Below, in pieces: positions 12,249-32,320 of a DNA stretch of 64,000 nt (position 1 is its first letter; each line of letters opens with the position of its first letter). The DNA comes from an uncultured Christensenellaceae bacterium. Its GTDB lineage: Bacteria; Bacillota; Clostridia; Christensenellales; UBA3700. The position numbers were made by a program, and so were the translations under genes. The DNA is taken from assembly GCA_944380305.1 (NCBI GenBank), contig CALWHF010000006.1, positions 24,422 to 88,421 of the forward strand, in the 5' to 3' direction. Under the pieces are notes generated by a model. It was given only the letters and a program-made list of their open reading frames with translations, was not told where the DNA came from and ran no database searches.

Positions 12249-13016
12249 TCAGTCGCTGTTGTATTTTTCCGTCCTAGGGATCTGCGTATATTCCTTGGGG
12301 CTGACTCCCGTGACCTTCTTGAACACTCTGGAGAAATAGAGCTGGTCGCTGAAGCCGCACATTTCGGCTATCTCGTATATCTTGTAATTATTGATATTCT
12401 TGCTGAGCAGCAGTTTCTGCGCGAAGCCTATACGCGTCACGTTGAGGAACTGAAGAGGGGAGATGCCCTTTTCCTTTATGAATTGCCTGCGGATATAGTC
12501 TTTGCTGAGAGGGAAGGTCGCATATACGTCGTCGAGCGAGAAGTTGGGGTCGGAGAAGTTTTCGACTATGCTGCTTGCGATCATCTCGACGTGCTGAGAA
12601 CAGTTGTCGCTGCCCGCGAAACTCGAGATCATGTTGAGCGTCAGCTCCGTGAACGAAAGTATGATGTTCGCCTGGTTTGGCACTTCGGCGTTGAAGTAGC
12701 GGTAGCACAGCGTCAGCACGTTGAAAATGTCCTTCTGCGGGTTGTCGCTGAGAATGATCGCCTTTTTGAAAGAGGGCGTCCAGTTCGCAACCGTCAGGTA
12801 TATGTTTTTGAATCCCATCTTGGAATCGTTGGTGTGCAGAGTATGCGGGGGAATGATGACCATCTGATTGCGCGAATATTCTATCGCGTCGCTGCCGTCG
12901 AAGAAGGTTATCGTTCCGTCTCCGTTCGTGCAGTAAATGATTTCCCAATAATCGTGCTGGTGCTGGGAAACGTGAAAGGTCTTCATGTTCTTTCCAATAT
13001 AATTAATGATCGGCAT
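12249..13016 (-). CDS. AraC family transcriptional regulator with N-terminal cupin
   Basis: HQHDYWEIIYC cupin and EIAEMCGFSDQLYFSRVFKK HTH; divergent from the sugar operon. Confidence 0.93.
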   Translation of the reverse strand: MPIINYIGKNMKTFHVSQHQHDYWEIIYCTNGDGTITFFDGSDAIEYSRNQMVIIPPHTLHTNDSKMGFKNIYLTVANWTPSFKKAIILSDNPQKDIFNVLTLCYRYFNAEVPNQANIILSFTELTLNMISSFAGSDNCSQHVEMIASSIVENFSDPNFSLDDVYATFPLSKDYIRRQFIKEKGISPLQFLNVTRIGFAQKLLLSKNINNYKIYEIAEMCGFSDQLYFSRVFKKVTGVSPKEYTQIPRTEKYNSD

Positions 13017-13035
13017 AAATTCACCTCCGAGTATT

Positions 13036-13113
13036 ATTCTAGCGCATTTAACCTATTTTGTCCATAATTTTTTTACAATTTACCTTGAAAAATTTTTCCC
13101 TTTAATTTATAAT
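13036..13113. promoter_or_regulatory. Divergent promoters for the AraC regulator and the eda operon
   Basis: Plus strand: TTGAAA(13085)-17-TATAAT(13108). Minus strand: TGGACA(13064)-17-TAGAAT(13041). Confidence 0.7.
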
Positions 13114-13187
13114 AAATTTATCGGGCGTAACGCGCCCGCAAGTGCGGCGTATTCAAAGGTTTTGCTTTTCGCCGACGGAGGAGATCA

Positions 13188-13829
13188 ATGGACAAGTTTG
13201 AAGTTTATTCGGCAATCAAAAAAGAGGGCGTTGTGGTCGTCATAAGAGGCGACAGCGTCGAGCAGGCTCTGAAGACGGTAGACGCCTGCTACAAGGGCGG
13301 CATAAAGTTTATCGAAGTGACTTTCACCGTTCCGCACGCCGACGCGATAATATCCGCGCTTTGCGAGAAATACAAGGGCACAGACATGGTGGTCGGCGCG
13401 GGCACGGTCCTCGACGCAGAGACCGCGAGAGCGGCGATTCTTGCGGGAGCGCAGTTCGTGTTCAGCCCCAGTTTCGATGCCGCAACGATAAAACTGTGCA
13501 ACCGATATGCGGTAGCGGTAGTGCCCGGCGTATTCACTCCGACCGAGGCGGTCGCGGCTCTCGAGCTGGGCGCGAATTTCGTAAAACTTTTCCCGGGAGA
13601 CGTAGCTACGCCTGCGGGACTCAAGGCACTCAGAGGACCTTTGCCGCAGCTTCAGATAATGCCGACCGGCGGCGTAAGTCTCGCCAACGTGGAGGACTGG
13701 TTCAAGGCGGGCGCGGTCGCGGTAGGCGCAGGCTCGTTCGTGACCAAGGGCGCGAAGAAAGGCGACTACGAAGAGGTCGAGAAGACGGCGAGAGAGCTTG
13801 TCGAAAAAGTCAGGAACATCAAGAAATAA
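13188..13829 (+). CDS. eda: KDPG/KHG aldolase
   Basis: IEVTFT, VGAGTVLD, VKLFPG, MPTGGVS motifs. Confidence 0.93.
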   Translation: MDKFEVYSAIKKEGVVVVIRGDSVEQALKTVDACYKGGIKFIEVTFTVPHADAIISALCEKYKGTDMVVGAGTVLDAETARAAILAGAQFVFSPSFDAATIKLCNRYAVAVVPGVFTPTEAVAALELGANFVKLFPGDVATPAGLKALRGPLPQLQIMPTGGVSLANVEDWFKAGAVAVGAGSFVTKGAKKGDYEEVEKTARELVEKVRNIKK

Positions 13830-13844
13830 GAGAGGTTTGACGAT

Positions 13845-14867
13845 ATGAGTATATTGACGGTAGGAGAGATAATGCTCAGACTTCAGCCGTACGGATACAA
13901 GAGATTCGCGCAGGCGGAGGCGTACGAAGCCGTTTACGGCGGAGGAGAGGCGAACGTCGCGGTGTCGCTTGCTCAATTCGGCGAGGACGTTTCGTTCTTC
14001 ACGAAACTGCCCGCAAACGCTATAGCCGACAGGTGCGTGGGAGAACTGCGCAGATACGGCGTGGACACGAAGAAGATCGTACGCGGCGGCGAAAGAATGG
14101 GCATTTACTTTTGCGAGAAGGGCTGTTCTCAGCGTCCGAGCAACGTGATATACGACAGGGCGCACAGCGCGATCAGCGAGATCGAGCCGGAGGACGTGGA
14201 CACCGACAGATTGCTCGACGGCGTCGAATGGCTGCACTGGACGGGCATTACTCCCGCGATCTCCGACAAGACCGCGAAGGTGCTCGCGATCATCCTCGCG
14301 GCAGCAAAGAAAAAGAATATAAAGGTGTCGTGCGACCTCAATTACCGCAAGAAACTGTGGAGCAAGCAGAAGGCGAACGAAGTTATGTCCGAGCTTGTAA
14401 AGACGGTGGACGTGCTGATAAGCAACGAAGAGGACTGCAAGGACGTGTTCGGCATAGAGGCGGACGACAGCAATATAAGCGGCGGCAAGCTGAACAAGGA
14501 GGGTTACGCCGCTCTCGGCGCGAAGGTGCTTGCGAAGTTCCCCGCGCTTTCGGGCATAGCGTTCACTCTCAGAGAGAGCCACAGCGCGAGCCGCAACGGC
14601 TGGTCGGCGATATACGTCACGAGAAACGCGGTATTCGAGAGCAAACATTACGAAATAGACATCGTAGACAGAGTGGGCGGCGGCGACAGTTTCGGCGCGG
14701 GACTCATCTACGGGCTCAGGAACGGTCTCGGAGAACAGGCGGCACTCGAATTCGCGGTCGCGGCATCCTGCCTCAAACATACGGTAGAGGGCGACTTCAA
14801 CGTCGTTTCCGTTGCCGAAGTCAAAAAACTCGCGGAGGGCGACGGCAGTGGTAGAGTACAGAGATAA
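13845..14867 (+). CDS. kdgK: 2-keto-3-deoxygluconate kinase (PfkB family)
   Basis: GEIMLRL, GGGEANVA, CDLNYRKKLW, IVDRVGGGDSF. Confidence 0.92.
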   Translation: MSILTVGEIMLRLQPYGYKRFAQAEAYEAVYGGGEANVAVSLAQFGEDVSFFTKLPANAIADRCVGELRRYGVDTKKIVRGGERMGIYFCEKGCSQRPSNVIYDRAHSAISEIEPEDVDTDRLLDGVEWLHWTGITPAISDKTAKVLAIILAAAKKKNIKVSCDLNYRKKLWSKQKANEVMSELVKTVDVLISNEEDCKDVFGIEADDSNISGGKLNKEGYAALGAKVLAKFPALSGIAFTLRESHSASRNGWSAIYVTRNAVFESKHYEIDIVDRVGGGDSFGAGLIYGLRNGLGEQAALEFAVAASCLKHTVEGDFNVVSVAEVKKLAEGDGSGRVQR

Positions 14868-16218
14868 CGTGATAAAACTTCTTGGTTCCGAAAGAGCCGA
14901 AAAGATATACGCGGCGGTCAAGGATCTGCCGATAATCGATTATCATTGTCATCTGTCTCCCAAAGAGATATTCGAGGACAAGCCTTTCGACGACATCGGC
15001 GAGATATGGCTTGCGGGCGATCACTATAAGTGGAGACTCATGCGCGGCTACGGCGTCGACGAGAAATATATCACGGGCGACGCGTCGTGGGAAGAAAAGT
15101 TCGACAAGTTCGCCGAGGCGGTCGGTTACGCGCTCGGCAATCCCGTAAAGGACTGGGTCGCGGCTGAGCTGATGTTCTTCTTCGGCATCACGACCCCGCT
15201 GAATAAGGATACCGCGAAAGAGATAAGAAAGCAGGCAAACGCGGTGATAAAAGAGAAGAAGATCTCCCCCCGCAAGCTGATAGAGGCGGCGAACGTGGAG
15301 TATATCGCGACGACCGACGATCCCTGCGACAGCCTCGAGTGGCACGACAGGATAGCAAAGGAAGGCGTGCTCAAAGCCAAGGTCGCGCCGACCTTCAGGG
15401 TGGACAACCTCGTATCTGTGGAAAAAGCGGATTACGCGGCGTACCTTGCAAGGCTCGCGGACGCGAGCGGCGTGAAGATAATCTCTCTCGCAACGTTGCG
15501 CGAGGCGGTCGGGAAAAGGCTGGATTTCTTCGTGAGCAAAGGTTGCAGATTTTCCGATATAGGAGTGGCAGGATTCCCGTGCGGCGTCGCGGACGAGAAA
15601 GCGGCGGCGGAAACCTTCGCGAAGATACTGTCGGGCGGCAAGGCTTCTGACGAGGAGATAAGCGCGCTCAAGGGTTATCTCTACGTCTATCTTGCGGCCG
15701 AGTACAAAAAGCGCGGCATCACTATGCAGATGCACCTCGCCGTGACCCGCAATTCGAACAGCGCGATGTTCGCAAAGTGCGGCGCGGACAGCGGTTTCGA
15801 CTGCGTCGGTAATTCGATAGACACCGACAAGCTGACCGCGGTGATAGACAGGATGAACGCGGGAGACGGCCTCCCCGAGACGATAATCTACACTCTCAAC
15901 CCGACGATGTACTATACGCTGATCACGATGATAGGCGCGTTCAGGGGAGTGCACCTCGGCGTCAGCTGGTGGTTCTGCGACCACAGACGCGGCATGAGAG
16001 AGACTTTTGACAGGCTGACAGAGCTGGGTCATATCTGCTCGATGGTGGGCATGCTGACCGACAGCAGGAGTTTCCTGTCCTATACCAGACACGACTATTA
16101 CAGGCAATGTCTCTGCGACTTCCTCGCGGACAATTCGTCCGAAAGGGACGGCGACGCGCCGACAGAGGTCGCGAAGAGGTTGTGCTATTATAACGCAAAG
16201 GAACTTTTGGAGGAATAA
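14848..16218 (+). CDS. uxaC: Glucuronate (uronate) isomerase
   Basis: PIIDYHCHL, GDHYKWRLMR, TTDDP, WWFCD, GMLTDSRSFLSYTRHDY. Likely GTG start at 14848 after GGAGG. Confidence 0.95.
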   Translation: MVEYRDNVIKLLGSERAEKIYAAVKDLPIIDYHCHLSPKEIFEDKPFDDIGEIWLAGDHYKWRLMRGYGVDEKYITGDASWEEKFDKFAEAVGYALGNPVKDWVAAELMFFFGITTPLNKDTAKEIRKQANAVIKEKKISPRKLIEAANVEYIATTDDPCDSLEWHDRIAKEGVLKAKVAPTFRVDNLVSVEKADYAAYLARLADASGVKIISLATLREAVGKRLDFFVSKGCRFSDIGVAGFPCGVADEKAAAETFAKILSGGKASDEEISALKGYLYVYLAAEYKKRGITMQMHLAVTRNSNSAMFAKCGADSGFDCVGNSIDTDKLTAVIDRMNAGDGLPETIIYTLNPTMYYTLITMIGAFRGVHLGVSWWFCDHRRGMRETFDRLTELGHICSMVGMLTDSRSFLSYTRHDYYRQCLCDFLADNSSERDGDAPTEVAKRLCYYNAKELLEE

Positions 16219-16220
16219 TT

Positions 16221-17270
16221 ATGGCATTCAGAATGACTTTCAGATGGTACGGCGAAAACGACAAGGTCACGCTTGACGACATCAGGCAGATACCTTGTGT
16301 CGAAGGCGTGGTATCGGCGATATACGACGTTCCCGTCGGCGAGGTCTGGCCCGTAGAGAAGATCGAGAGACTCAAGAAACTCGCAAACGACAAGGGGCTG
16401 ACCTTCGAAGTCGTCGAGAGCGTGCCCGTTCACGAGGACATCAAGCTGGGCAACGCCAACGCGGCGAGACTCATCGAGAACTACAAGGAGAACGTCAGAC
16501 GTCTCGGCAAGGCGGGAGTCAAGTGTATCTGCTATAACTTCATGCCCGTGTTCGACTGGCTGAGGAGCAATCTCGCGAAGGAACTGCCTGACGGCTCTAA
16601 CGCGCTCGCGTACGATCACGAGACCGTGCTTGCGATGAACCCGCTGACCAGCGAGCTTTCGCTGCCCGGCTGGGACGCGAGCTATACGAGAGAGGGACTC
16701 AAAGGACTTCTCGAGCAATACAAAGACATAGACGACGAAAAGCTGTGGGAGAACATGACGGTATTCCTCAAAGAGGTCGTCCCCGTAGCGGAGGAGAGCG
16801 GAGTCAAAATGGCGATACACCCCGACGATCCGCCGTGGGGTATCTTCGGTCTGCCCAGAGTCATCATCGACGAGAAGAATCTCAAGAGATTCCTGTCCAT
16901 CGTCGACAGCCCGAGCAACGGCATAACGCTGTGCACAGGCTCTCTCGGCGTCAACCCGAAGAACGATCTCGTATCCATGATAAAGACCTGCAAGGGCAGA
17001 ATGCCTTTCGTGCACCTGCGCAACATCAAGATCACGGGCGATCACTGTTTCGAAGAGAGCGGTCATCTCAGCGAAAAGGGAAGCCTCGATATGTACGATA
17101 TAATCAAAGCTCTGTACGACGGCGGTTTCGACGGTTACGTCCGTCCCGACCACGGCAGAATGATATGGGGAGAGACGGGCAGAGCGGGTTACGGTCTGTA
17201 CGACCGCGCGCTCGGAGCGATGTATCTGCAAGGCATTATCGAGGCGGTCGAAAAGAACGCAAAGAAGTAA
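16221..17270 (+). CDS. uxuA: Mannonate dehydratase
   Basis: MTFRWYG, CYNFMPVFDW, AIHPDDPP, RPDHGR, GYGLYDRALG. Confidence 0.96.
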   Translation: MAFRMTFRWYGENDKVTLDDIRQIPCVEGVVSAIYDVPVGEVWPVEKIERLKKLANDKGLTFEVVESVPVHEDIKLGNANAARLIENYKENVRRLGKAGVKCICYNFMPVFDWLRSNLAKELPDGSNALAYDHETVLAMNPLTSELSLPGWDASYTREGLKGLLEQYKDIDDEKLWENMTVFLKEVVPVAEESGVKMAIHPDDPPWGIFGLPRVIIDEKNLKRFLSIVDSPSNGITLCTGSLGVNPKNDLVSMIKTCKGRMPFVHLRNIKITGDHCFEESGHLSEKGSLDMYDIIKALYDGGFDGYVRPDHGRMIWGETGRAGYGLYDRALGAMYLQGIIEAVEKNAKK

Positions 17271-17320
17271 TAAACAAGGATAATATTAAGAATCAATATA
17301 AATAAGGAAGGAGAAAAATC

Positions 17321-18154
17321 ATGTCGGTCTACAAGAACAAAGTGGTGGTCATCACCGGCGCGGGCGGCATCCTGTGCAGCGAGATAGCAAAAGAATACGC
17401 GAAATACGGCGCGAAGATAGCAGTGCTCGACCTCAATCTCGAGGCGGCGCAGAAAGTCGCGGACGAAATAGTCGCGGACGGCGGCGTGGCAAAGGCGTAC
17501 AAGGTCAACTGCCTCGACAAGGAGAACATGGAGCAGGCGAGAGTCGAGATCAACAAGGACCTCGGCAAGTGCGATCTTCTCGTAAACGGCGCGGGCGGCA
17601 ACAACCCCAAGGGCACGACGACCAACGACTACTTCGATATGGCGGACGTAGAGAACCCTGACGTCAAGAGTTTCTTCGACCTCGACGGCAACGGCGTGGA
17701 CTTCGTGTTCAAACTCAACTTCCTCGCGACGTTCCTGACCACGCAGGTGTTTGCGAAAGACATGGTGGAAAGAGGCGGCAACATCATCAACATCTCGTCG
17801 ATGAACGCTTTCAGACCTCTGACCAGGATACCCGCGTACAGCGGCGCGAAGGCGGCGGTCAGCAACTTCACGCAGTGGCTCGCGGTACACTTCGCGAAGG
17901 CGGGCATAAGGGTCAACGCGATTGCTCCCGGTTTCTTCGTGACCAACCAGAACAGAGCGTTGCTGTTCAACCCCGACGGCACTCCTTCGGCTCGTGCGGA
18001 AAAGATACTGCGCGGCACCCCGATGGGCAGATTCGGCGAGGCGAAAGAGCTGATGGGCACTATGTTGTGGCTCGCAGACGACGAAAAGGCGGGGTTCGTG
18101 ACGGGTATCGTCGTTCCGATAGACGGCGGTTTCTCGGCATATTCGGGAGTCTGA
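17321..18154 (+). CDS. uxuB: D-mannonate oxidoreductase (SDR type)
   Basis: ITGAGGILC, NGAGGN, PLTRIPAYSGAKAAVSNFTQWLAV; genomic context. Confidence 0.88.
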   Translation: MSVYKNKVVVITGAGGILCSEIAKEYAKYGAKIAVLDLNLEAAQKVADEIVADGGVAKAYKVNCLDKENMEQARVEINKDLGKCDLLVNGAGGNNPKGTTTNDYFDMADVENPDVKSFFDLDGNGVDFVFKLNFLATFLTTQVFAKDMVERGGNIINISSMNAFRPLTRIPAYSGAKAAVSNFTQWLAVHFAKAGIRVNAIAPGFFVTNQNRALLFNPDGTPSARAEKILRGTPMGRFGEAKELMGTMLWLADDEKAGFVTGIVVPIDGGFSAYSGV

Positions 18155-18178
18155 TTATACGGAAAAACAGGAGAGATT

Positions 18179-19456
18179 ATGAGTACGGTAGCGGTTTTGG
18201 GACTGGGAAACAGAGGCAAGAATTACGGCGGTCATCTGAACAAGCTCGAAGGAGTGAAGATCGTCAGCATCTGTGACAAATATCAGGCAAAGATAGACAA
18301 AGTCAAGTCGGCGTGGAACGTGCCCGACGACAAGTGTTTCACCGACGAGGACAAGTTTTTCGCGCAGGGCAAGATAGCGGACGTGATGATCATCGCTACG
18401 CAGGACCGCGATCACTACGGTCATGCGATCAAGGCACTCAATCTGGGATACAATCTGCTTCTCGAAAAGCCGGTCAGCCCCAGCATAACCGAGTGTCTCG
18501 AGATAGAGAAACTGGCGAGAGAAAAGGGACTCAAGGTCCTGGTCTGCCACGTTCTCCGCTATGCGAATTATTACCGCAGGATAAAGAAGATAATAGACAG
18601 CGGCGTACTGGGCGAGATCAAGCTGATCAAGCATGACGAGCATATCTCGTGGTGGCATTTCTGCCACAGCTACGTCAGAGGAAACTGGCGCAGAGAGGAG
18701 GAAACGACCCCGATGCTGCTCGCGAAATGTTGTCACGACATGGATCTGCTGTACTGGTTCGCGGGCGCGAAGTGCAAGAGTCTTTCGTCGTACGGCGACC
18801 TCAGTTATTTCACGAAGGCGAATGCGCCAAAGGGTGCTACCGCGACGTGTTTCGACTGCCCGCATAAAGACACCTGTATATTCGAGTGCGAATATCAGTA
18901 CGTCGGCAGAGGACGCAAAGGTCACAAATTCCCGTGGGGAACGTACGCGTTCTGCACGACGGGCAAAAAGGCGGACGTTATAGAGGCTCTGAAGAAAGGC
19001 GAAAGAGGCAAGCTATGGTCTAGATGCGTATTCGGTTGCGACAACGACGTCGTAGATTGCCAGACCGTGAACATGGAGATGGAGAACGGCGTCAAGATTG
19101 TTATGACCGCCAACGCGTTCAACGAGAAAGACCACAGACATACCGAGATCAGAGGTACGAAAGGCGAACTCATCGCCGACGATACGGGCAGCGTGATCAC
19201 GCTCAAGCTGTTCGACCAGAAACCTAAGAAGATCATCGTCAACATAATTCCTGTAATAAAGGGACATTACGGCGGCGACCAGGGCATAACGAAATCCACC
19301 GCGGATATGCTTGCGGGCAAACTCGACCCTAACGGGCAGTATACCTGGATAAAGGATACGATAGAGAGTCATCGCATAGTTGCGGCGGCAGAGCTGTCGA
19401 GAAAGAACGGCGGCAGAAAAGTGGATATGACGGAGATACCCGACATAGAGAAGTGA
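18179..19456 (+). CDS. Gfo/Idh/MocA family oxidoreductase (YteT-like, Cys-containing insertion)
   Basis: GLGNRG Rossmann motif, LLEKP, HSYVRGNWR, LLAKCCHDMD, GHYGGD. Confidence 0.9.
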   Translation: MSTVAVLGLGNRGKNYGGHLNKLEGVKIVSICDKYQAKIDKVKSAWNVPDDKCFTDEDKFFAQGKIADVMIIATQDRDHYGHAIKALNLGYNLLLEKPVSPSITECLEIEKLAREKGLKVLVCHVLRYANYYRRIKKIIDSGVLGEIKLIKHDEHISWWHFCHSYVRGNWRREEETTPMLLAKCCHDMDLLYWFAGAKCKSLSSYGDLSYFTKANAPKGATATCFDCPHKDTCIFECEYQYVGRGRKGHKFPWGTYAFCTTGKKADVIEALKKGERGKLWSRCVFGCDNDVVDCQTVNMEMENGVKIVMTANAFNEKDHRHTEIRGTKGELIADDTGSVITLKLFDQKPKKIIVNIIPVIKGHYGGDQGITKSTADMLAGKLDPNGQYTWIKDTIESHRIVAAAELSRKNGGRKVDMTEIPDIEK

Positions 19457-19457
19457 T

Positions 19458-19910
19458 ATGGCGACTCTGTTCGACAGGGTGTGTGTTCTGACGAAAAAAG
19501 ACCAGAGCACGCATCGCAAATTATATTTCGAAGTGCCTGAAGGCGCGAAGAAACTACATATAAGCGTCCGATACGAACCCAAGTATAATTACGACGAGGA
19601 ATACGGGCTGGATTTGATCGAACGGAGCATGCTGAAACAAGCGGGCGAACCTCTTATGACGAGAGGAGAAATGCGAGCCGCGTTGCCTCTCGACAATCAC
19701 CTGTCGTTTTCGCTCGACTCCCCGTCGGGAGCTGCAGGAACGGCGCACAGAGGCAATAACGTACAGAATTTTACGATATGCGAGGACAGCGCGGACGGAG
19801 GGTTTTACCCGTGCCGCATAGAGCAAGGAGTGTGGACCTTCGTCATCAGCGTGACCTGCATAATCACGGACAAAATAGAAGTCGCGGTGAAGATAGAGGC
19901 GGAAGCATGA
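19458..19910 (+). CDS. Hypothetical beta-sandwich protein, like the accessory domain of CehA/McbA-type PHP hydrolases
   Basis: Translationally coupled on both sides; LHISVRYEP...SLDSP...GFYPCRIEQGVW pattern. Confidence 0.7.
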   Translation: MATLFDRVCVLTKKDQSTHRKLYFEVPEGAKKLHISVRYEPKYNYDEEYGLDLIERSMLKQAGEPLMTRGEMRAALPLDNHLSFSLDSPSGAAGTAHRGNNVQNFTICEDSADGGFYPCRIEQGVWTFVISVTCIITDKIEVAVKIEAEA

Positions 19911-21519: not shown

Positions 21520-22658
21520 TAAGGGTTGCCGTTACGGGAATAGGAAGAATGGGCGGAAAACACGCGTCCAACTTCGTAAAAGGCGCGGTCGCAAACGCGA
21601 AACTCGTCGCCGTCTGCGATACCGACGAAAAGGTCGCAGACAGATTCAGAGCGAATTATTCGGGTGTCGCGACGTATACCGATTACGACGAAATGCTCGA
21701 AAAGGAAAAGCCCGATGCGGTCGTCATCGCGACCCCGCACTATTCTCATTCTGAGCTTGCGAAAAAAGCTCTCGTCAGAGGTATAAGCGTGCTTGTCGAA
21801 AAGCCGATAACGGTGACGGTGAAGGACGCGAATTCTCTTATAGCGACTGCGAAGGCGCACCCCGAGGCGATCTTCGCGATAATGTACAACCAGCGCAGCA
21901 ATTCGATATACGCCCGCGCGAAAAAGATAATCGAGAGCGGCAGGCTGGGAGATATTCAGAGGGCATCGTTCACTATAACCGACTGGTACAGGACGCAGTA
22001 TTACTACAATATGGGCGGTTGGCGCGCCAGCTGGTCGGGCGAAGGCGGCGGCACTCTGATAAATCAGTGCGTGCACCAGCTCGATATACTTCAATGGCTG
22101 CTCGGTATGCCCGAGAGGATAATCGCGAGATGCAAGACGGAGGGCAGGAACATAACTACCGAAAACGACGTGATCGCTATGTTCTGTTATAAGAATTTCG
22201 ACTGCGTATTCACCGCGTCGACTCACGAGCTGCCGGGAGAGAACAGGTTTGTGATAGTGGGTTCGAAAGGCACTCTCGTGATTACCAGGCACAAGGCGGT
22301 CTGCAAGTTCCTCAGAATGGACGAGAAACAGGTCAACGCGAGAGCGAAACGCGATTACGGCAACAGAGAGGACAAGAAATACGACAAAGAGTACATGTTC
22401 TACGGCATAAGGAATTATCTGACGGACGCGCTGTACGGTCAGCAATGCAACATTTTGAGAGATTTCGTCGCAGCGGTAGGAAAGAAAGACGCGTCGTTGC
22501 TCAGAGCGCGCGGAGAGGAGGGCGTCAACGCGCTCAACATAATAAACGCGATAAACATGTCGGCGTGGAAGGGAAAGGAAGTGACCGTTCCCGTCGATCC
22601 CGAAGAATACGATAAAATGCTCGCCGAAAAGATAAAGGGCGAGAAAAAGATAAAGTAA
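21516..22658 (+). CDS. Gfo/Idh/MocA family oxidoreductase
   Basis: GIGRMG, IATPHYSH, VEKP, WRASWSGEGGGTLINQCVHQLD. Confidence 0.92.
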   Translation: MIRVAVTGIGRMGGKHASNFVKGAVANAKLVAVCDTDEKVADRFRANYSGVATYTDYDEMLEKEKPDAVVIATPHYSHSELAKKALVRGISVLVEKPITVTVKDANSLIATAKAHPEAIFAIMYNQRSNSIYARAKKIIESGRLGDIQRASFTITDWYRTQYYYNMGGWRASWSGEGGGTLINQCVHQLDILQWLLGMPERIIARCKTEGRNITTENDVIAMFCYKNFDCVFTASTHELPGENRFVIVGSKGTLVITRHKAVCKFLRMDEKQVNARAKRDYGNREDKKYDKEYMFYGIRNYLTDALYGQQCNILRDFVAAVGKKDASLLRARGEEGVNALNIINAINMSAWKGKEVTVPVDPEEYDKMLAEKIKGEKKIK

Positions 22659-22689
22659 TTTAATTTGCCGATGAGGAGGATATAAATTT

Positions 22690-23637
22690 ATGGCAAACAT
22701 CAGGATTTCAGGTTTTTACGACGAGGTCAGTTCCAATCTCGACGAACAGATAAAGCTGATCAAAGAGCTGGGCGAAAGCTATCTGTGCCCCAGAGTGGTG
22801 GACGGCAAGAACATCGCCAACTATACCGAGCAGGAGTTCAGGAGCACGATCAAGCCGCGCCTCGACAACGCGGGTATCAAATTCTCCTCGATAGGCTCCC
22901 CGATAGGCAAGATAGGTCTGTACGACGACGAGGCGTACGAGGCTCAGCTTGCGAAACTCAAAGAGCTGGTCAAGATCTGCAAGGATATGGATTGCAAATA
23001 CATAAGGATGTTCTCGTTCAGAGTCAAGGCGAGCGGCGACTACAAGGCGTATTTCCCCGAGGTAGTCAAGAAGCTGCGCGGATTCCTCAAGGTCGTCGAG
23101 GGTACGGACGTGATACTCCTGCACGAGAACGAAAAGAGAATTTACGGCGATACTCCCGAGAGATGTCTCGAGCTTTACAACGAGATCAATCATCCGCAGT
23201 TCAAACTCGCGTTCGACGCGTCCAACTTCATACAGTGCGGCGTAAACGTGCCCAAGGCGTACGAGATGCTCAAGGATTATGTCGTATATTACCACATCAA
23301 GGATTGCTCTCCCGAGAAGGTGGAAGTCCCCGTAGGTCTCGGACTCGGCAATTACAAGGAGATGATAAAGGATCTTATCGTAAACAGGAATTACGACGGT
23401 TTCATGACTCTCGAGCCGCATACGGGCAAGTACGCGGATCACAAAAAGCTGTTCTACGTCCTCGGCTGGATCACCTGGATGCTGCCTTACGTCGGCAACT
23501 GGAACAAGGTGTTCAAGCGCATCAACGCGGCTAAGGGCATAGAGCCTATGCAGACGGTCACGAGAAAGGATATATTCATGTGGCAGTACAACGGACTCAA
23601 GGAAATAATCGACGAAGTCGAAAAGGAGAATAAATAA
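22690..23637 (+). CDS. Sugar phosphate isomerase/epimerase family (xylose-isomerase-like TIM barrel)
   Basis: ISGFYDE, GSPIGK, LLHENEK, FDASNF, HIKD, LEPH metal ligands. Confidence 0.9.
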   Translation: MANIRISGFYDEVSSNLDEQIKLIKELGESYLCPRVVDGKNIANYTEQEFRSTIKPRLDNAGIKFSSIGSPIGKIGLYDDEAYEAQLAKLKELVKICKDMDCKYIRMFSFRVKASGDYKAYFPEVVKKLRGFLKVVEGTDVILLHENEKRIYGDTPERCLELYNEINHPQFKLAFDASNFIQCGVNVPKAYEMLKDYVVYYHIKDCSPEKVEVPVGLGLGNYKEMIKDLIVNRNYDGFMTLEPHTGKYADHKKLFYVLGWITWMLPYVGNWNKVFKRINAAKGIEPMQTVTRKDIFMWQYNGLKEIIDEVEKENK

Positions 23638-24800
23638 TGGATAAGGTAAGGTACGGTATCGTAGGTATCGGCAAGCAGGGAAGCAACTATGCGAAGAGGC
23701 TCTTCAAGGGCATGGACAAGAACGGTCAGCTCGTCGCGGTGTGCGATATTGCCGAAGATCGCAGAAAGTGGGCTGAGACCGCGCTCCCCGGGGTAAAGGT
23801 ATTCGGCGATTACAAAGAGATGTTCGCGAGCAAACTCATCGACGCAGTGATCATCGACACGCCGCACTATGCGCACCCGACGATAGCGATAGACGCACTC
23901 AAGGCGGGTCTCCACGTCCTCAGCGACAAGCCCGCGGGCGTATTCACCAAGGCGGTCAGAGAGGCGGCGGAATTCGGCAAGACCAAGCCCGAACTCAAAT
24001 TCGGTCTGCTTTACAATCAACGTACCAACAAGGTCTACAAGAAGGCGAAAGAGATAATCGAGAGCGGCAGACTGGGCAATCTCAAGCGTATCGTCTGGAT
24101 AATCACCAACTGGTACCGTCCTCAGGCGTACTACGACCAGGGCGGCTGGAGAGGCACCTGGGCAGGTGAAGGCGGCGGCGTGCTGATCAATCAGGATCCG
24201 CATCAGCTCGACCTGTTCACATGGCTTGCGGGCGTTCCGATAAAGAAAGTCTGGAGCAACGCAAAGACGGTCGGCAGAAAGATCAACGTGGAGAACGACG
24301 TCACCGCGGTCTGCGAATTCGAGAACGGCGCGACGGGCGTGTTCATCACCTCGACGCATGACGCTCCCGGCACCAACAGGCTCGAGATCACCGGCGACGG
24401 CGGCAAGATAGTCATCGAGGGAAGCAACGACGTCAGCATGAAACTGAAGTTTACCGAGAACAGCGTCGCCGAGCCCGAATTTTCCAGGACAAACAAAGTG
24501 TTTATGGGCAAGATACCCAACAAGGTGTCCAAATACAAGCTGGGTCTTGTAGACATTATCAAGGGCATTATCGAGCAGCAGCACATCGTGGTCGTCCGCA
24601 ACTTCTCCGAGGTCGTACTCGGCAAGACGGACAAGCTGGTCGCACCGTACGCGGACGGTCTCAACGGTCTCGGTTTCTCCAACGCGATACACCTTTCGGC
24701 GTGGACGGGCAAAGAGGTCGTGTATCCGTACGACGAGGATTTGTATATCAAAGAGCTAGACAAGAGAATAGAAGAAGAAAAGAATTCCGGCGTGAAGTGA
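23637..24800 (+). CDS. Gfo/Idh/MocA family oxidoreductase (paralogue of 21516-22658)
   Basis: GIGKQG, TPHYAH, SDKP, WRGTWAGEGGGVLINQDPHQLD. Confidence 0.92.
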   Translation: MDKVRYGIVGIGKQGSNYAKRLFKGMDKNGQLVAVCDIAEDRRKWAETALPGVKVFGDYKEMFASKLIDAVIIDTPHYAHPTIAIDALKAGLHVLSDKPAGVFTKAVREAAEFGKTKPELKFGLLYNQRTNKVYKKAKEIIESGRLGNLKRIVWIITNWYRPQAYYDQGGWRGTWAGEGGGVLINQDPHQLDLFTWLAGVPIKKVWSNAKTVGRKINVENDVTAVCEFENGATGVFITSTHDAPGTNRLEITGDGGKIVIEGSNDVSMKLKFTENSVAEPEFSRTNKVFMGKIPNKVSKYKLGLVDIIKGIIEQQHIVVVRNFSEVVLGKTDKLVAPYADGLNGLGFSNAIHLSAWTGKEVVYPYDEDLYIKELDKRIEEEKNSGVK

Positions 24801-24822
24801 TTTCGCGGATAAGGAGAAAAAT

Positions 24823-26757
24823 ATGAATTACAAACTCAAAAGCGGCAAGATAATCACGACGGGCAAACTGCACGAGAGAGCTTTCTACGACGTCAGCAAC
24901 AACCGTATCACGGCGCAGTTCGACGGCAGAGGAGGCATCTCGAAGTATGCGGTCATGAACAAATTTTCCGTATTTACCAACTACTACTCGATGTACACGG
25001 TGGACGGCGTGCCCTTCGACTATATGGAGGACAAGGTCGTCACTATGGAAGGAAAGAGACAGATCACCGAGATCGAGCACGAGAAGTGCAAGCTGACGAT
25101 CACTCAGTTCCTCGACAACGAGAGCAACGCGATCTACGTCGAGACCGCGGTAGAGGCAAAGCAGGACATCGATTTCGACAACACCGTCAACTTCGGCATC
25201 AATTACGAGAGCTACGTCCAGCAGCTTCTCGCCAACAGACTCAGCCCGAAGACGATAGCTACCGTGCTGACAGGGTTTATCAAGAGCAAGAAGAACGGTC
25301 TGACCTTCAACGGCGCGAGCGCGAAACTGCACGGGGACGTTCTCGGCGACTTCTACATCGACTTCGCGATAAGCGAGGGCGCACAGGCGGGAGAAGCGGA
25401 GAGAGGTTTCCACAATCAGTTCAGCTACGGCGCAAAGCTGCGCGCGGGCGAGCTGAGAAAGTTCAGATACGTCGTCAGCGCGGGTACGAGAAACGACTTC
25501 ACGTTCTGCGACGTGACCGAATGTCTCAACAAGTTCGACGTTGCGGCGAAAGAGGCGCAGAAGTACATAGACGATCTCGTCTGCCCCGATTGCGTCAAGG
25601 GCGACGACTTTATGGAGACCTATTACAAATCCTTGCTCAATTGCAGCATTTCCAATTACAAGGAGCTGGGCAAGTTCAAAGGTTTCCTCGCGGGCATAGT
25701 ATATCAGTTCCCCGCAAGAACGTATTACCGCGACGCGTACTGGACGGTGCTGTCGGTGCTCCCCGTCAGACCCAAGCTCGTGCGCAACGAGATAGTCACT
25801 CTCGGCAACGGCATCAACAAGAAAGGTGAGTGCCCGAGCGCGGTTAAGTTCAACTTCAAGAATTACTGGGGCAATCACTACGATTCTCCGTCATTCTTCG
25901 TAGCCATGATATACGATTACGTCGTGCACACGGGCGACCTTAGCGTACTCAGCGAGTCCTGCGCGTGCGGCACGATCATCGAGGCGGCAAAGCTCGTGCT
26001 CGACAGACTGGAGCAGGAGACCGATTCTACGGGACTTCTCGTCAAAGGCGGAGAGTACAACCGCCGCGACTGGTGCGACAACGTGTTCCGTAGCACCTAC
26101 GTCACCTACGACGAGGCTCTGTATGCGCGCGCCCTGTTCGCGATGAGTGAGCTTTGCGACGCCTGCGGTCTGGACGGCAACGGTTATTACGCGAAGTACG
26201 TCAAGGTCAAAAAGGCGATCAACGACCTGCTGTGGGACGAAGAAAAGGGATATTACGTCAACTACAAGAGCAAGGAGTTCACGGAGGACAACCTGTCCAT
26301 AGACACGGTGGTCGCGGTACTGTTCGGCATAGCGGATGAGGAGAGATCCAAACGCGTGCTCGAGAATATGGAGAAGATGCTCGAGTCCAAAAACAACAAG
26401 CAGCAGAAGGCAGGCGACTTCGGCACTCTCAGCGTATATCCGTTCTACAAGAATACGAAGGATATCGTGCAGAAGTCATCGCTCCCGTACTACTACCACA
26501 ACGGCGGCGACTGGCCGTATCTTTCCTGCGTTTATGCGTATGCGAAACTCATGTACGGTATGGACTACAAGTATCCGCTGACGAGATGGTTTGAGTACAA
26601 CCTCGATCAGGGCAATTACACTCCCGTCGAGTTCTTCAGCCCCGTTCATCCGCAAGGCTCGCTGCTTCAGGCGTGGTCGAGCACGGGTGCGTTCGTACTG
26701 TCGTACAACGACGGCAACTTCTTCCGCAAACAGCTTGGCGACAAACGCGTCAAGTAA
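24823..26757 (+). CDS. (alpha/alpha)6-barrel glycoside hydrolase, amylo-alpha-1,6-glucosidase (GDE_C)-like; specificity unknown
   Basis: RTYYRDAYW, DSPSFF, YVVHTGD, DWCD, LWDEEKGYY, YHNGGDWP, QAWSS. Confidence 0.82.
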   Translation: MNYKLKSGKIITTGKLHERAFYDVSNNRITAQFDGRGGISKYAVMNKFSVFTNYYSMYTVDGVPFDYMEDKVVTMEGKRQITEIEHEKCKLTITQFLDNESNAIYVETAVEAKQDIDFDNTVNFGINYESYVQQLLANRLSPKTIATVLTGFIKSKKNGLTFNGASAKLHGDVLGDFYIDFAISEGAQAGEAERGFHNQFSYGAKLRAGELRKFRYVVSAGTRNDFTFCDVTECLNKFDVAAKEAQKYIDDLVCPDCVKGDDFMETYYKSLLNCSISNYKELGKFKGFLAGIVYQFPARTYYRDAYWTVLSVLPVRPKLVRNEIVTLGNGINKKGECPSAVKFNFKNYWGNHYDSPSFFVAMIYDYVVHTGDLSVLSESCACGTIIEAAKLVLDRLEQETDSTGLLVKGGEYNRRDWCDNVFRSTYVTYDEALYARALFAMSELCDACGLDGNGYYAKYVKVKKAINDLLWDEEKGYYVNYKSKEFTEDNLSIDTVVAVLFGIADEERSKRVLENMEKMLESKNNKQQKAGDFGTLSVYPFYKNTKDIVQKSSLPYYYHNGGDWPYLSCVYAYAKLMYGMDYKYPLTRWFEYNLDQGNYTPVEFFSPVHPQGSLLQAWSSTGAFVLSYNDGNFFRKQLGDKRVK

Positions 26758-26838
26758 AATAAGGTAGAATAGCGGCAAACACGTCCTTAAACGGGGCGAC
26801 CGCATATAAAATACAAAATAAAATTGGGAGGTTATGAG

Positions 26839-28425
26839 GTGGAAGACACGACAAACACCATCGATCAGGCGGGCGTCACTCCGGGTGCCCCTGCCGAAGA
26901 GGAAGTACTGAGCGTTGAGGATCAAAAACTCATCAATCAGAAATTTCTAAAACCCAGAGATTACATACTGTTCTCGCTCGCGAGATTCGCAAGCAGTGCG
27001 GTCACGGGTCTCGTTCAGGGTTATTTGTTGTTCTATTACACTGCGTGTATGGGCATTTCTCCTACTGCCGTAGGAACGATGTTCCTTATCACAAAGATTT
27101 TCGACGGTCTGAACGACCCGGTTATGGGTATTATCGTTGACAGGACCCGCACCAGATGGGGCAAAATGAGACCCTATCTTGTCTTTGGTGCGGTGCCGTG
27201 GGCAATAGTCACGATTTTGCTGTTCTTTCCTATATCCAACTGGTCGAGCGTCGGAAAAATCGTCTGGATGTATTTTACATACATAATGTATGATATTACG
27301 GGTACGATAGTGGGCGTTCCTCTTGACGGTATACCGGCTGTTGCGTCTCCGAATATGGACGAACGTTCGAAAATCATTTCTATCAGCCGTATCCTCGGTT
27401 CGATAGGCGAGCAGTCAGCGCTGGTGCTCATTTCTATAGGACTTATTCTTACAAACGACGATTATGCCAATACGTATTTCATAGTTGCGATCATTATCGG
27501 CATTCTCGGACCTCTGTTCATGGTCCTCGGCGGTGTAAGAGTAAAGGAAAGATGCGAACCTACAGAAACTACGCCCAGTCTGATAGAAGGCTTTAAATAT
27601 CTGTTCAAGAATAAACCGTTCCTGCTGTTGATATTGTCCAACCTGCTTACATTCTTCAGAAACCTTGTAAGCGCGGCGATCATGTATGTTGTCGCATATA
27701 TTTACAGCAACGGATCTTTGCAGATAGCTTTCGCGCTCCCCGGTGCAGTAGCTTCAATGATAGGTATGTTGTTCGCGCCGAGACTGAAGAGAATGATGGA
27801 CTCAAAGAAGCTGTTTATCTTTGCGACGATATGGCACTCTGCGGCGCTGGCGGTCATATTCTTCATTTACATAATCGGCGGCACCAACTGGATACTCATC
27901 GCGGCTCTGATGTTCTTTGCGATGCTCCCCGTGGGCGTGCTCAACGTCGTACCGCACCTTATGGCAACGGATACGCTGGACTACTGGGAAGACAAGTGCG
28001 GCGAACGTCTCGAAGGCATTACGTTCTCGCTTATGAGTCTGAGAAGCAAGGTGTCATCGGGCTTCAAGGATTATTTCCTGTCATGGCTGCTTGCGTTCTT
28101 CCTGTTCTCGCAGCCGCTGTCGTTCCTGTCAGACCACAAGCCTGAACAGACGGAATTCACCAAGCTGGGATTGTTTATGATATTCACTATAATTCCCGCT
28201 ATAACCAACCTGATCTCTATCGTTCCCATGCTATTCTACAACCTTTCGGGAAAGAAGATGGCGCAGATCGAAGCAAGACTCGCTCACAAGAGAAAACAGG
28301 AATATGTAGCCAAGATGGCTGCCGAAGGCGCCGCCCTTGACGGAGAAGCCGGCTCGGAACGCTATATAAGCGACAGCGTGATAGACGAGATTTCTAAATC
28401 TCAGACAGAGCAGAAGGAGGAATAA
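26839..28425 (+). CDS. MFS transporter, glycoside-pentoside-hexuronide (GPH/MelB) family
   Basis: KIFDGLNDPVMGIIVDRTRTRWGKMRPY, DTLDYWE..G.R.EG; ~12 TM segments; GTG 26839 after GGAGG. Confidence 0.92.
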   Translation: MEDTTNTIDQAGVTPGAPAEEEVLSVEDQKLINQKFLKPRDYILFSLARFASSAVTGLVQGYLLFYYTACMGISPTAVGTMFLITKIFDGLNDPVMGIIVDRTRTRWGKMRPYLVFGAVPWAIVTILLFFPISNWSSVGKIVWMYFTYIMYDITGTIVGVPLDGIPAVASPNMDERSKIISISRILGSIGEQSALVLISIGLILTNDDYANTYFIVAIIIGILGPLFMVLGGVRVKERCEPTETTPSLIEGFKYLFKNKPFLLLILSNLLTFFRNLVSAAIMYVVAYIYSNGSLQIAFALPGAVASMIGMLFAPRLKRMMDSKKLFIFATIWHSAALAVIFFIYIIGGTNWILIAALMFFAMLPVGVLNVVPHLMATDTLDYWEDKCGERLEGITFSLMSLRSKVSSGFKDYFLSWLLAFFLFSQPLSFLSDHKPEQTEFTKLGLFMIFTIIPAITNLISIVPMLFYNLSGKKMAQIEARLAHKRKQEYVAKMAAEGAALDGEAGSERYISDSVIDEISKSQTEQKEE

Positions 28426-28429
28426 CGCT

Positions 28430-29665
28430 ATGAAAAAAAGATACATTTCAATACTTGCGATAGTTGTCGTTGCCGTTTTGCTCTGCACCGTGTTCATGGC
28501 CTGCAGCCAGAGCGAAGAGGATTATTACAACGATATAGCCAAAGACGTGGAGAAGTTCAACGAGCAGTATGACGATATCCTCGCAAATCTCAACAAAGCT
28601 AATTTTTCTGTCAGTTTCAGCTTCAATACGCATTACAATGCGGCTATAACCAGAGGAAGCAAAGACAGCAAAGGCTGGGACAGCTTTGAAAACGCATACA
28701 ACAGCTTTTACGATTCTATAGGAAAAGAAGATCCCAACATCTTCGACAACATTCTAGGCACTAAAACCGACGCGCAGAAGGCTATCGACGATCTCGGAGT
28801 GCAGAAAAATGCCTGGATGGATTCTTATACCGAATTTACTTATATGCAGAACGGCAGTAAGAACTTTTACCTCAAGATGGTTTCCTATCCCTCTATCTGG
28901 GAGAACTATTACGATTCGTTCATAGAGGCTCTCAACGATCAGAGCGTTCTGAACGAGGGACTCAGCGGGGACAGCGACAAGGTAAAGTGGCAGACGATCG
29001 ACGAGACGATCAAGAACAAGATCGAGTATGTGCTTAAAGTCGAAAACGGTGTCAGCAACGGCGTTGAATATGACGGCATCGAACAGTTGTCTGCCATCGT
29101 AGGTATCGTAAGCGGACAGATGCCCGTGGACGATTGTTATACCTTCACCAACGGCAACAAGATCTATACCAACGTTATGCAGGCTCAGTATATCACAGCC
29201 TACAAGCTGGGCGAGGAGAACAACGTGACTCACGACGAAATCGTTGCTCCCGAATACGGAACAGAGGAGTGGGACGCGTTTATTGCGGAATTCCCGGATA
29301 TAATAAAATCCTGGAATGAGAAGGCGGACGAGATCTTCAGAAACAACCTGCTGGGCATGAGTGACGAGCTTCGTATCGACAAATCCGAAAACGTTGATGG
29401 TAAATACTGGTCAGGCTTCGGAAAAGATATCGTTTACAATTGGGAAAACGTGGGCGCGTTGAAGATAACCCGTTATACTTACAACTACAAGAAGAGCAAA
29501 TCGAGACTCGACCAGATAGACTATTACACCGAGTACGTAAAGCCCTACTACACAGAGAAGAGCGCGGCGGACTCTACGCTGGAACTGAAAGGAGACGTCT
29601 ATTACAAATCCCACATCGTTGCCAATTTCGAATACTCGGACGGAGCGGTCAGTTTTCCGCAATAA
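28430..29665 (+). CDS. Lipoprotein of unknown function, last gene of the sugar operon
   Basis: Signal peptide with lipobox FMA-C, RBS AGGAGG, beta-rich C-terminus ending FEYSDGAVSFP. Confidence 0.78.
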   Translation: MKKRYISILAIVVVAVLLCTVFMACSQSEEDYYNDIAKDVEKFNEQYDDILANLNKANFSVSFSFNTHYNAAITRGSKDSKGWDSFENAYNSFYDSIGKEDPNIFDNILGTKTDAQKAIDDLGVQKNAWMDSYTEFTYMQNGSKNFYLKMVSYPSIWENYYDSFIEALNDQSVLNEGLSGDSDKVKWQTIDETIKNKIEYVLKVENGVSNGVEYDGIEQLSAIVGIVSGQMPVDDCYTFTNGNKIYTNVMQAQYITAYKLGEENNVTHDEIVAPEYGTEEWDAFIAEFPDIIKSWNEKADEIFRNNLLGMSDELRIDKSENVDGKYWSGFGKDIVYNWENVGALKITRYTYNYKKSKSRLDQIDYYTEYVKPYYTEKSAADSTLELKGDVYYKSHIVANFEYSDGAVSFPQ

Positions 29666-29679
29666 CCCGAAAAGTCGAT

Positions 29680-32319: not shown

Positions 32320-32320
32320 T

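Follow-up and report, generated by a model that had tools for sequence, protein, structure and literature searches.

What substrate is served by an operon in which a complete set of glucuronate-degrading enzymes is combined with three Gfo/Idh/MocA dehydrogenases, two phosphoesterases, a glycosidase, a symporter and a lipoprotein? The question is raised by a stretch of 64,000 nucleotides, referred to here as the window, from an uncultured Christensenellaceae bacterium (NCBI GenBank assembly GCA_944380305.1, contig CALWHF010000006.1, positions 24,422-88,421 of the forward strand). The source genome comprises 1.94 Mb in 33 contigs and is 92% complete, and the window glycosidase is 95% identical to a copy in a chicken-gut Christensenellaceae metagenome-assembled genome. 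Based on homology, active-site conservation, synteny and presence in RNA libraries, from which every activity, the order of the steps and the substrate are predicted below, the locus is tentatively explained, with confidence a little short of even, as an operon under AraC control by which an anionic, glucuronate-centred glycoside would be imported and taken apart in the cytoplasm, the substrate being of the glycosyl inositol phosphorylceramide (GIPC) type. Its core, made up of import, oxidative cleavage of the glucuronide and the Ashwell pathway, is predicted with good confidence.

The evidence for oxidative cleavage comes from two of the dehydrogenases, gfo2 and gfo3, both of which matched 8TDI, the "P2B11 glucuronide-3-dehydrogenase", in a sequence search of the Protein Data Bank (PDB). 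P2B11 is a cluster on a human-gut fosmid from a Gram-positive source (gene order Iso1-Oxido1-Oxido2-Iso2) which, according to a 2024 preprint, hydrolyses alpha- and beta-glucuronides via a 3-keto intermediate, with Oxido1 as its central enzyme and a rate enhancement by the two Iso proteins, which are of the TIM type (bioRxiv 10.1101/2024.03.25.586180). The genes of the predicted cleavage and degradation steps are as follows.

21516-22658, + strand: gfo2, Gfo/Idh/MocA protein, glucuronide 3-dehydrogenase paralogue (8TDI, E 9e-70)
22690-23637, + strand: TIM barrel protein, xylose-isomerase-like (PF01261), with a putative "Iso" role
23637-24800, + strand: gfo3, Gfo/Idh/MocA protein, P2B11 Oxido1-like (8TDI, E 1e-102, 347 bits, residues 1-382)
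13188-13829, + strand: eda, KDPG/KHG aldolase (NF005119, 286 bits, cut-off 238)
13845-14867, + strand: PfkB kinase (PF00294), probable kdgK, assigned by context
14812-16218 (open reading frame, ORF), + strand: uxaC, glucuronate isomerase (NF002794, 493 bits, cut-off 387)
16221-17270, + strand: uxuA, mannonate dehydratase (NF003027, 492 bits, cut-off 191)
17321-18154, + strand: D-mannonate oxidoreductase of the short-chain dehydrogenase/reductase (SDR) type, in the uxuB role (NF006132, 428 bits, cut-off 281)

The products of gfo2 and gfo3 are 41% identical, and the TIM gene alone lies between the two genes. Each protein keeps all six active-site residues, namely Asn147, Trp179, Arg181, Tyr185, Asn205 and His209 (residue numbers of the preprint, which equal 8TDI chain positions plus 10). 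The gfo2 protein may act as a reductase or as a second dehydrogenase. The nearest solved structure to the TIM protein was that of AsbF, a 3-dehydroshikimate dehydratase (E 5e-8), which likewise catalyses elimination beside a 3-keto group; the TIM barrel is a probable 3-keto-glucuronide lyase or hydratase.

Of 399 Clostridia genomes sampled, 145 carried genes similar to gfo3 (E <=1e-60). In a hand-picked set of 16 Clostridia loci with gfo3 homologues (top matches, tandem pairs, closed genomes and fused forms), the gfo3 homologue adjoined a homologue of the window TIM gene (36-50% identity) in 15 cases, and uxuA together with uxuB in seven. In genomes G007, G081, G220, G272, G348, G244 and G150 the gfo3-like matches lay in open frames of ~670-690 aa, which suggests a glucuronide 3-dehydrogenase fused to another domain.

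The hexuronate part had been described as complete for glucuronate in a first-pass annotation of this DNA made from the sequence alone, and all five roles of uxaC-uxuBA-kdgK-eda were indeed found. Four of the five enzymes exceeded curated cut-offs, the KDG kinase being recognised at the level of the PfkB family and by context; its best NCBIfam match was to the kinase part of NF041633 (525 bits, under the cut-off of 700). The start codon of uxaC is uncertain, the family match beginning at residue 23 of the ORF.

The same annotation had placed the Gfo and TIM proteins in the IolG and IolE/IolI families of inositol metabolism. This assignment had to be abandoned: the IolG model TIGR04380 (cut-off 355 bits) scored 71, 114 and 100 bits with gfo1, gfo2 and gfo3, respectively, the TIM protein had no match to the IolE model TIGR04379 at E <=0.01, and gfo2 and gfo3 matched 8TDI. 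Its further statement, that the usual feeders of glucuronate (GH2 beta-glucuronidase, GH67 or GH115) are absent from the operon, was borne out by a Pfam scan of the operon genes, which revealed no GH2, GH67 or GH115 domains, but a predicted oxidative feeder of the P2B11 type is present. Because gfo2 and gfo3 are homologues of the glucuronide 3-dehydrogenase described in 2024, the pathway is not wholly undescribed. The gfo2-TIM-gfo3 genes together with uxaC-uxuB-uxuA-kdgK-eda are best read as encoding a putative oxidative route from glucuronide to pyruvate, not inositol chemistry. Five genes with a GH2 catalytic domain occur in the source genome (C2:106588, C6:82135, C1:338054, C23:4552 and C12:38564), of which that at C6:82135 lies inside the window at ~57714-58568.

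The core route would run as follows. The GPH symporter and its lipoprotein partner would import the glucuronide, gfo3 would oxidise C3 of the glucuronosyl residue, the TIM enzyme would eliminate the aglycone and/or hydrate the glycal, and gfo2 would reduce 3-keto-glucuronate to glucuronate, which UxaC, the SDR-type UxuB, UxuA, KdgK and Eda would convert to pyruvate and glyceraldehyde-3-phosphate. By analogy with P2B11, such a route could work on glucuronides of either anomer, alpha or beta, with no need for a classical glucuronidase.

Do the other genes of the operon belong with this core? They and the signals that bound the operon are listed here.

12249-13016, - strand: AraC-family regulator (HTH_18, HTH_AraC and AraC_binding domains), divergent from the operon
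13085-13113, + strand: promoter-like site TTGAAA, 17-nt spacer, TATAAT (pattern scan, 11/12; a consensus match only)
18179-19456, + strand: gfo1, Gfo/Idh/MocA protein of 425 aa with a Cys-rich insert (Pfam)
19458-19910, + strand: orf150, 150 aa, no family match, overlapping the start of the PHP gene
19907-20869, + strand: PHP metallo-phosphoesterase of the CehA/McbA type (NF038032, 183 bits, cut-off 80; PF02811)
20866-21519, + strand: predicted minimal, divergent member of the glycerophosphodiester phosphodiesterase (GDPD) family, 217 aa (orthologue profile against PDB 2pz0)
24823-26757, + strand: six-hairpin (alpha/alpha)6 glycosidase, cytoplasmic, 644 aa, with weak, near-equal matches to several GH families
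26824-28425, + strand: GPH-family cation symporter (TIGR00792, 274 bits, cut-off 231)
28430-29665, + strand: orphan lipoprotein, 411 aa, lipobox ..VFMAC|S, no family match
29687-29707, + strand: terminator-like hairpin followed by a T run (pattern scan, 8 pairs, 5 of them G-C; a consensus match only)

Sixteen co-directional ORFs lie between the promoter-like site and the hairpin, with intergenic spacings, calculated from the coordinates, of -7 to 66 bases. Coordinates and pattern scans therefore agree with the single, tightly packed unit opposite an AraC regulator that had been described in the first-pass annotation, and each gene named there was located at its place by the family scans; the 150-aa ORF at 19458-19910 was absent from its gene list. 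An araC homologue occupies the equivalent position in related loci L119, L120 and L125-L130. Signal peptides were not seen in the translations of the operon enzymes, the sole extracytoplasmic product being the lipoprotein.

Contigs from RNA libraries of three studies covered 24-26 of the 30 bins of 11500-30500, mostly at an identity of at least 99%. Single contigs bridged gfo1/orf150 (19070-19514), PHP/GDPD (20517-20891), GDPD/gfo2 (21078-21632), gfo2/TIM (22438-22780) and gfo3/GH/GPH (24790-27045); most of the lipoprotein gene was without cover in three of four runs. The bridging contigs fit a transcribed polycistronic unit, with the reservation that such contigs cannot prove one transcript and that DNA may occur in such libraries.

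Conservation of the cluster was assessed by scanning species-representative genomes with a profile of the glycosidase, which gave 278 relatives, of which the best 80 loci were used. The window proteins were mapped on these loci by tblastn (E <=1e-10, at least 40% of the query), and genes were counted over those 65 loci in which the sequence 5' of the glycosidase extends for 8 kb or more. Homologues were found of GDPD in 61, gfo2 in 59, TIM and gfo3 in 50 each, uxuA, uxuB and PHP in 49 each, orf150 in 48, uxaC in 47 and gfo1 in 46 of the 65 loci. uxuA and GDPD occurred together in 46 loci, uxuA alone in three, GDPD alone in 15 and neither in one. The gene order recurs in most of the 65 loci, and the gene set is kept across dozens of Christensenellales genomes. 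The counts of GDPD (61/65), PHP (49/65) and uxuA (49/65) argue for one conserved unit. The grouping of accessory with uxa/uxu genes put forward in the first-pass annotation is borne out in the relatives, where their co-occurrence is not rare.

Variants of the cluster were also found. Loci of a termite-gut group (L071, L081 and L083) are without gfo1, PHP and GDPD, and another group (L010-L013, L039, L040 and L043-L049) is without PHP and orf150. In a Stercoripulliclostridium group GH20 is followed by orf150-PHP-GDPD-gfo2-GH (L070:5502-21915, with the same layout in L058 and L077), the PHP protein being short (~227 aa). On the 3' side in this group lie genes for a Big_3/MBG surface protein (1250 aa), a class-III aminotransferase of 533 aa resembling glutamate-1-semialdehyde aminomutase and two FucA-like class II aldolases, followed by a GPH gene and a 417-aa protein which is not a lipoprotein. 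In two of these genomes uxaC lies elsewhere, with no other cluster query gene adjoining it.

The glycosidase is predicted to belong to the six-hairpin clan without having a defined family there. All of 12 aligned members matched GH94, GDE_C, trehalase and MGH1-like models (best E 6e-11 to 5e-7), ten matched GH78 and four GH116, with no family clearly best. Its best solved relative was the GH78 enzyme RhaB (E 1.7e-8, over 150 residues only), and profile matches to PDB entries spanned 80-170 residues, which is part of the barrel. It carries an invariant motif, NRRDWCDN. The protein is rare, being present in 2 of 399 genomes of the class and 12 of 201 of the order. The names given to distant relatives ("hypothetical", "amylo-alpha-1,6-glucosidase" and, once, "aminotransferase") are uninformative.

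A distant homologue was also seen in another genome of this phylum, with a GC content of 72% (L100; G661:C1:198500-218400, - strand), in an array of an IolB equivalog (217 bits, cut-off 205), an unknown gene, an ABC sugar importer, LacI, the glycosidase, GPH and a BshB1-like PIG-L deacetylase (172 bits, under the cut-off of 182.5). That genome contained no IolD or IolE above cut-off; the array is a weak lead.

The window GDPD on its own had no Pfam match; 10 of 14 aligned orthologues matched PF03009 (best E 1.3e-6), and the profile of the 14 found structure 2pz0 (E 5e-8) with the catalytic positions aligned. His5, Glu31, Asp33, His45, Asp75 and Lys77 do not vary, but the HRG motif has Gly in place of its Arg. 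An apparent PHP-GDPD fusion in L051 was dismissed as artefactual, since its 526-aa ORF arises where the GDPD frame happens to lack stops in the upstream stretch occupied by PHP. Pfam recognises only GDPD in it (residues 373-513), and PHP itself is read in a different frame, which closes at 8288. A 603-aa GDPD ORF in L034 was discarded because it contains a stop codon.

The small orf150 agrees with PHP in presence or absence in 64 of 65 loci, and the two form one in-frame ORF of 493-534 aa in 18 loci, the PHP domain lying at residues 181-240 of the fusion in L016; orf150 is therefore considered a split-off N-terminal domain of the PHP enzyme. As to gfo1, its insert contains C184, C185, C224-x2-C227-x5-C233 and C283-x3-C287, invariant in nine orthologues, which could be a metal or iron-sulfur site; such a site is not known as a feature of Gfo/Idh/MocA enzymes. 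It is distant from 8TDI (E 1e-7), and its nearest solved relatives align over the Rossmann half only.

The symporter (at least 40% identity) was found 3' of the glycosidase in 46 of the 62 loci with enough downstream sequence. Of the 52 loci having a next ORF directly 3' of the symporter, at least 33 encode there a protein of 250-460 aa with a lipobox, the count being a lower bound since greedy ORF picking missed copies seen by tblastn. All 33 join the window lipoprotein in one BLASTP-linked family, for which a word-based database search gave eight homologues and no domain. The lipoprotein is thus predicted to be a conserved partner of the symporter. Some relatives within the transporter family carry lipids, and by analogy the substrate of the pair might even be a lyso-lipid. 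In the source genome a second GPH symporter (C11:4505-5797) is likewise directly followed by a lipobox protein, of 240 aa; among the 11 GPH matches listed for this genome, a clear downstream lipobox ORF was seen at these two only, and the pairing may be a more general feature of the lineage.

What could the glycoside be? Plant GIPC head groups have been given as GlcNAc(a1-4)GlcA(a1-2)Ins-1-P-Cer or Man-GlcA-IPC, in which GlcNAc is N-acetylglucosamine, GlcA glucuronic acid, Ins inositol, Cer ceramide, Man mannose and IPC inositol phosphorylceramide (PMC8099651). For the outer layer of the proposal, the substrate favoured tentatively, at clearly less than even confidence, is a sugar-GlcA-inositol-phosphate head group as in plant GIPC, or else an inositol phosphoglycan resembling it. 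The GH38 enzyme listed below and/or the six-hairpin glycosidase would remove the distal alpha-linked sugar, GDPD would cut the phosphodiester, the two-part PHP enzyme would then take the remaining phosphate, and the released inositol would enter the canonical iolJCBDEAG operon located elsewhere in the genome. Putative enzymes for the sugar, GlcA, phosphodiester, phosphate and inositol steps are all present.

3878-6820, + strand: GH38 alpha-mannosidase, without a signal peptide (Pfam GH38 N, middle and C domains)

The relevance of this gene, noted in the first-pass annotation as lying ~5 kb upstream, was strengthened by the relatives. In the window GH38 is separated from araC by nrdD and nrdG (8713-12053, - strand), coding for the anaerobic ribonucleotide reductase and its activase. 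In all six relatives outside the Stercoripulliclostridium group for which flanks were fetched, a GH38 gene 53-79% identical to the window copy lies beside araC, with nrdG and nrdD between them in L130 and in direct contact in the other five, so that GH38 is regarded as a conserved member of the neighbourhood.

The iol genes were also traced in relatives. In L119 and L120 (from the genomes of L028 and L042) the order is iolJ-GH38-iolCBDEAG, araC on the other strand and eda-kdgK-uxaC-uxuA-uxuB-gfo1. In L051 the same-strand genes 5' of gfo1 are the end of IolD, IolE (394 bits, cut-off 290) and MMSDH (544 bits, cut-off 448.5); the longer flank of this locus (L118) showed GH38-iolCBDEA leading into gfo1-orf150-PHP-GDPD-TIM-GH-GPH-lipoprotein. 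This locus has no uxu, gfo2 or gfo3, and gfo1 is the only Gfo enzyme retained in the lineage, beside iol and TIM genes. A fourth genome, that of L061, has iolCBDEG and the glycosidase on one contig, ~17 kb apart. The genome of the window itself contains a complete iolJ-C-B-D-E-A-G array (contig C1, 59478-67661), with IolD at 873 bits (cut-off 715), IolE at 423 bits (cut-off 290) and IolB at 70 bits on the equivalog model and 141 bits on Pfam KduI/IolB. Among genomes carrying close relatives of the glycosidase, IolE was above cut-off in all five of one set and in 39 of the 44 of another, compared with 17 of 201 genomes in an even sample of the order. The conserved GH38 and the linked iol genes lend indirect support to a Man/hexosamine-GlcA-inositol-phosphate substrate.

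Several observations weigh against such a substrate. No extracellular or lipid-acting enzyme, ceramidase or lipase, was identified in the cluster; with all enzymes cytoplasmic, the path by which a ceramide-linked head group would become an importable solute is unaccounted for. A GDPD would be expected on glycerol-linked rather than ceramide-linked diesters. In the even order sample IolE was present in 3 of 12 glycosidase-positive as against 14 of 189 glycosidase-negative genomes (some of the 12 being incomplete and some holding distant copies), and four close-carrier genomes of the set of 44 are without IolE. Among the 49 genomes of relatives that were examined, just three have iol genes adjoining the cluster; apart from the genome of L061, the others have them on another contig or, in a closed chromosome, 972 kb away. 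Related genomes are not independent observations. In a tree of the glycosidase (FastTree, 73 rows, L042 left out) the iol-adjacent rows fell on three separate branches, with clustering not above that of shuffled labels. The Stercoripulliclostridium loci, which showed no TIM, gfo3, uxu or GH38 match nearby, and of which two flanks were searched for GH38 without a match, fit a GIPC substrate poorly. As to the core, the cluster has a single TIM gene between the oxidoreductases, unlike P2B11 with its two flanking Iso genes.

The alternative that survives best, although we consider it unlikely, keeps the same oxidative core and has the accessory block serve a phosphodiester-bearing glycan without inositol, such as glycerophosphate-substituted or teichoic/teichuronic-acid-derived oligosaccharides or 6-anionic glycosides; the iol neighbourhood would be a coincidental insertion. 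Glycerophosphodiesters are the classical substrates of GDPD enzymes, and in the Stercoripulliclostridium group the block is paired with GH20, an aminotransferase and aldolases. The absence of linkage to iol in 45 of the 49 genomes and the presence of IolE in just 3 of the 12 glycosidase-positive genomes of the order sample point the same way, as does the slow cleavage of 6-phospho, 6-sulfo and sulfoquinovosyl glycosides reported in the preprint for P2B11 (bioRxiv 10.1101/2024.03.25.586180). Coincidence is harder to reconcile with a GH38 gene conserved beside the operon, with IolE in 44 of 49 close-carrier genomes, and with the L051 lineage, which retains the accessory block directly behind iol after the loss of uxu, gfo2 and gfo3.

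A second alternative, quite unlikely in our estimate, is that the substrates are deacylated glycolipid anchors containing inositol and glucuronate from other microbes or the host, instead of plant GIPC. Examples are glycerophosphoinositol mannosides, of the phosphatidylinositol mannoside (PIM) type with glycerophosphoinositol (GroP-Ins) and mannose (GroP-Ins-Man), and Man-GlcA-glycerol. On this view mannose would be taken off by GH38 and the six-hairpin enzyme, while GroP-Ins would be the target of GDPD and GlcA-glycerol that of the oxidative module. The ingredients (Man, GlcA, Ins and a phosphodiester) are the same, a glycerol-linked diester would suit GDPD, and such lipids, once deacylated, are soluble and of a size that a GPH symporter could handle, fitting the all-cytoplasmic enzymes. 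Two different lipids would be needed for one operon, however, both would have to be available in the guts where the cluster occurs, and the weak linkage to iol is shared with the GIPC proposal.

A third alternative, in which inositol itself is oxidised and isomerised by the Gfo and TIM proteins, in the manner of IolG, IolE/IolI or Thermotoga IolG/M/N/O, and its carbon is fed into uxa/uxu, is very improbable. The weak IolG-model matches and a Thermotoga inositol route ending in tagaturonate, as indicated by reference entries in PMC3750489, speak for it, but the IolG cut-off is far from reached, the TIM protein has no IolE match (E <=0.01), the genome already holds a complete canonical iol operon, and Pfam and NCBIfam scans revealed no UxaE, UxaA or UxaB homologue among the cluster genes. 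In addition, gfo2 and gfo3 are homologous to the glucuronide 3-dehydrogenase and keep its whole active site, the 8TDI match being the ground on which a Thermotoga-type oxidative route was rejected for them.

Returning to the proposal of a GIPC-type head group, these compounds are the predominant glycosphingolipids of plant membranes (PMC12201980) and make up to 40% of total plant sphingolipids (PMC8099651), so that the guts of herbivores and omnivores would be constantly supplied with them. Among the matches listed in a literature search there was no gut bacterial route for GIPC head groups, and none reported the combination of core and accessory block beside GH38 and iol. The term "undescribed pathway" used in the first-pass annotation overstates the case, the chemistry of the redox core having been described in 2024 and the catabolic tail being textbook. 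New here are GH38 as a conserved neighbour, the iol operon beside the cluster in three relatives and the iolJCBDEAG array in the same genome. The accessory block of glycosidase, GDPD, two-part PHP, Cys-rich gfo1 and symporter-lipoprotein pair is conserved. That the locus represents the first bacterial pathway eating plant GIPC or similar inositol-phosphoglycan head groups, with a new GH family, is doubtful; the P2B11-type module would then break the GlcA-alpha-1,2-inositol bond, which to our knowledge no classical glucuronidase is known to cut.

If the substrate is as proposed, it would be a natural substrate for P2B11-type non-Koshland cleavage and would explain the physiological purpose of this chemistry. 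The glycosidase would then define a new family, the symporter and its lipoprotein would become a defined pair, and small-genome Christensenellales would be tied to a specific dietary lipid. Should the core alone be true, the locus would be one more member of the widespread module found in the Clostridia sample (145/399 with gfo3-like genes), and would still bear on the reactivation of glucuronides by gut bacteria without a beta-glucuronidase (GUS) enzyme.

Other genes near the operon were also noted. Downstream (29755-33349) lie a heavy-metal P-type ATPase with HMA domains and a DAHP synthase, which are syntenic in the closest relatives and in some farther ones (e.g. L014, L015, L017 and L022), and are probably functionally unrelated to the operon. 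Three small co-directional ORFs occur 3' of GH38 (6883-8537), two without a family (213 and 167 aa) and one LURP-one-related/Tubby-like (164 aa). In L102, of the same order, nrdD and nrdG lie beside a bare gfo3-TIM-gfo2-GPH cluster.

Compared with known systems, the window has the full glucuronate set of the Ashwell pathway (UxaC, UxuB, UxuA, KdgK and Eda). It differs from the standard in that the reductase is of the SDR type and not a long-chain UxuB, in having no altronate-branch genes and in that the feeder is predicted to be oxidative and not GH2, GH67 or GH115. The canonical inositol pathway of the Bacillus subtilis type is encoded in the same genome and lies next to the cluster in three relatives, but none of the window cluster genes is a member of it. 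The acc operon of agrocinopine catabolism contains the GDPD-family phosphodiesterase AccF and the phosphatase AccG; like it, the window would pair a GDPD-type diesterase with a phosphomonoesterase for an imported sugar phosphodiester, whereas the phosphatase family and the transporter are different and acc is without a glucuronate or redox module.

With the 3-keto-glycoside pathway of Bacteroides and Alistipes (BT2156-2160 and the AL cluster) the locus would share non-Koshland cleavage via a 3-keto intermediate. The window Gfo proteins scored only 42-71 bits against the BT_2158/BT_2159 families (cut-offs 650-750), no DUF1080 protein was found in the window cluster, unlike in those systems, and the latter, as described in the preprint, act on neutral glucosides (bioRxiv 10.1101/2024.03.25.586180).

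The closest likeness is to P2B11, of which the redox core appears to be a member-like variant with a single TIM gene and another gene order, joined to a textbook catabolic tail. In both, two Gfo/Idh/MocA paralogues lie close by a xylose-isomerase-like TIM gene; gfo3 aligns with Oxido1 over its full length with the six named active-site residues kept, and the chemistry expected in the window is the same anomer-blind sequence of C3 oxidation, elimination, hydration and reduction. Cleavage by P2B11 is reported to be stimulated by Mn2+ or Co2+, and the preprint's account of the cluster indicates no evident transporter or regulator nearby (bioRxiv 10.1101/2024.03.25.586180). In the window, unlike P2B11, the module shares an operon with the hexuronate pathway, a transporter, a regulator and the accessory block.

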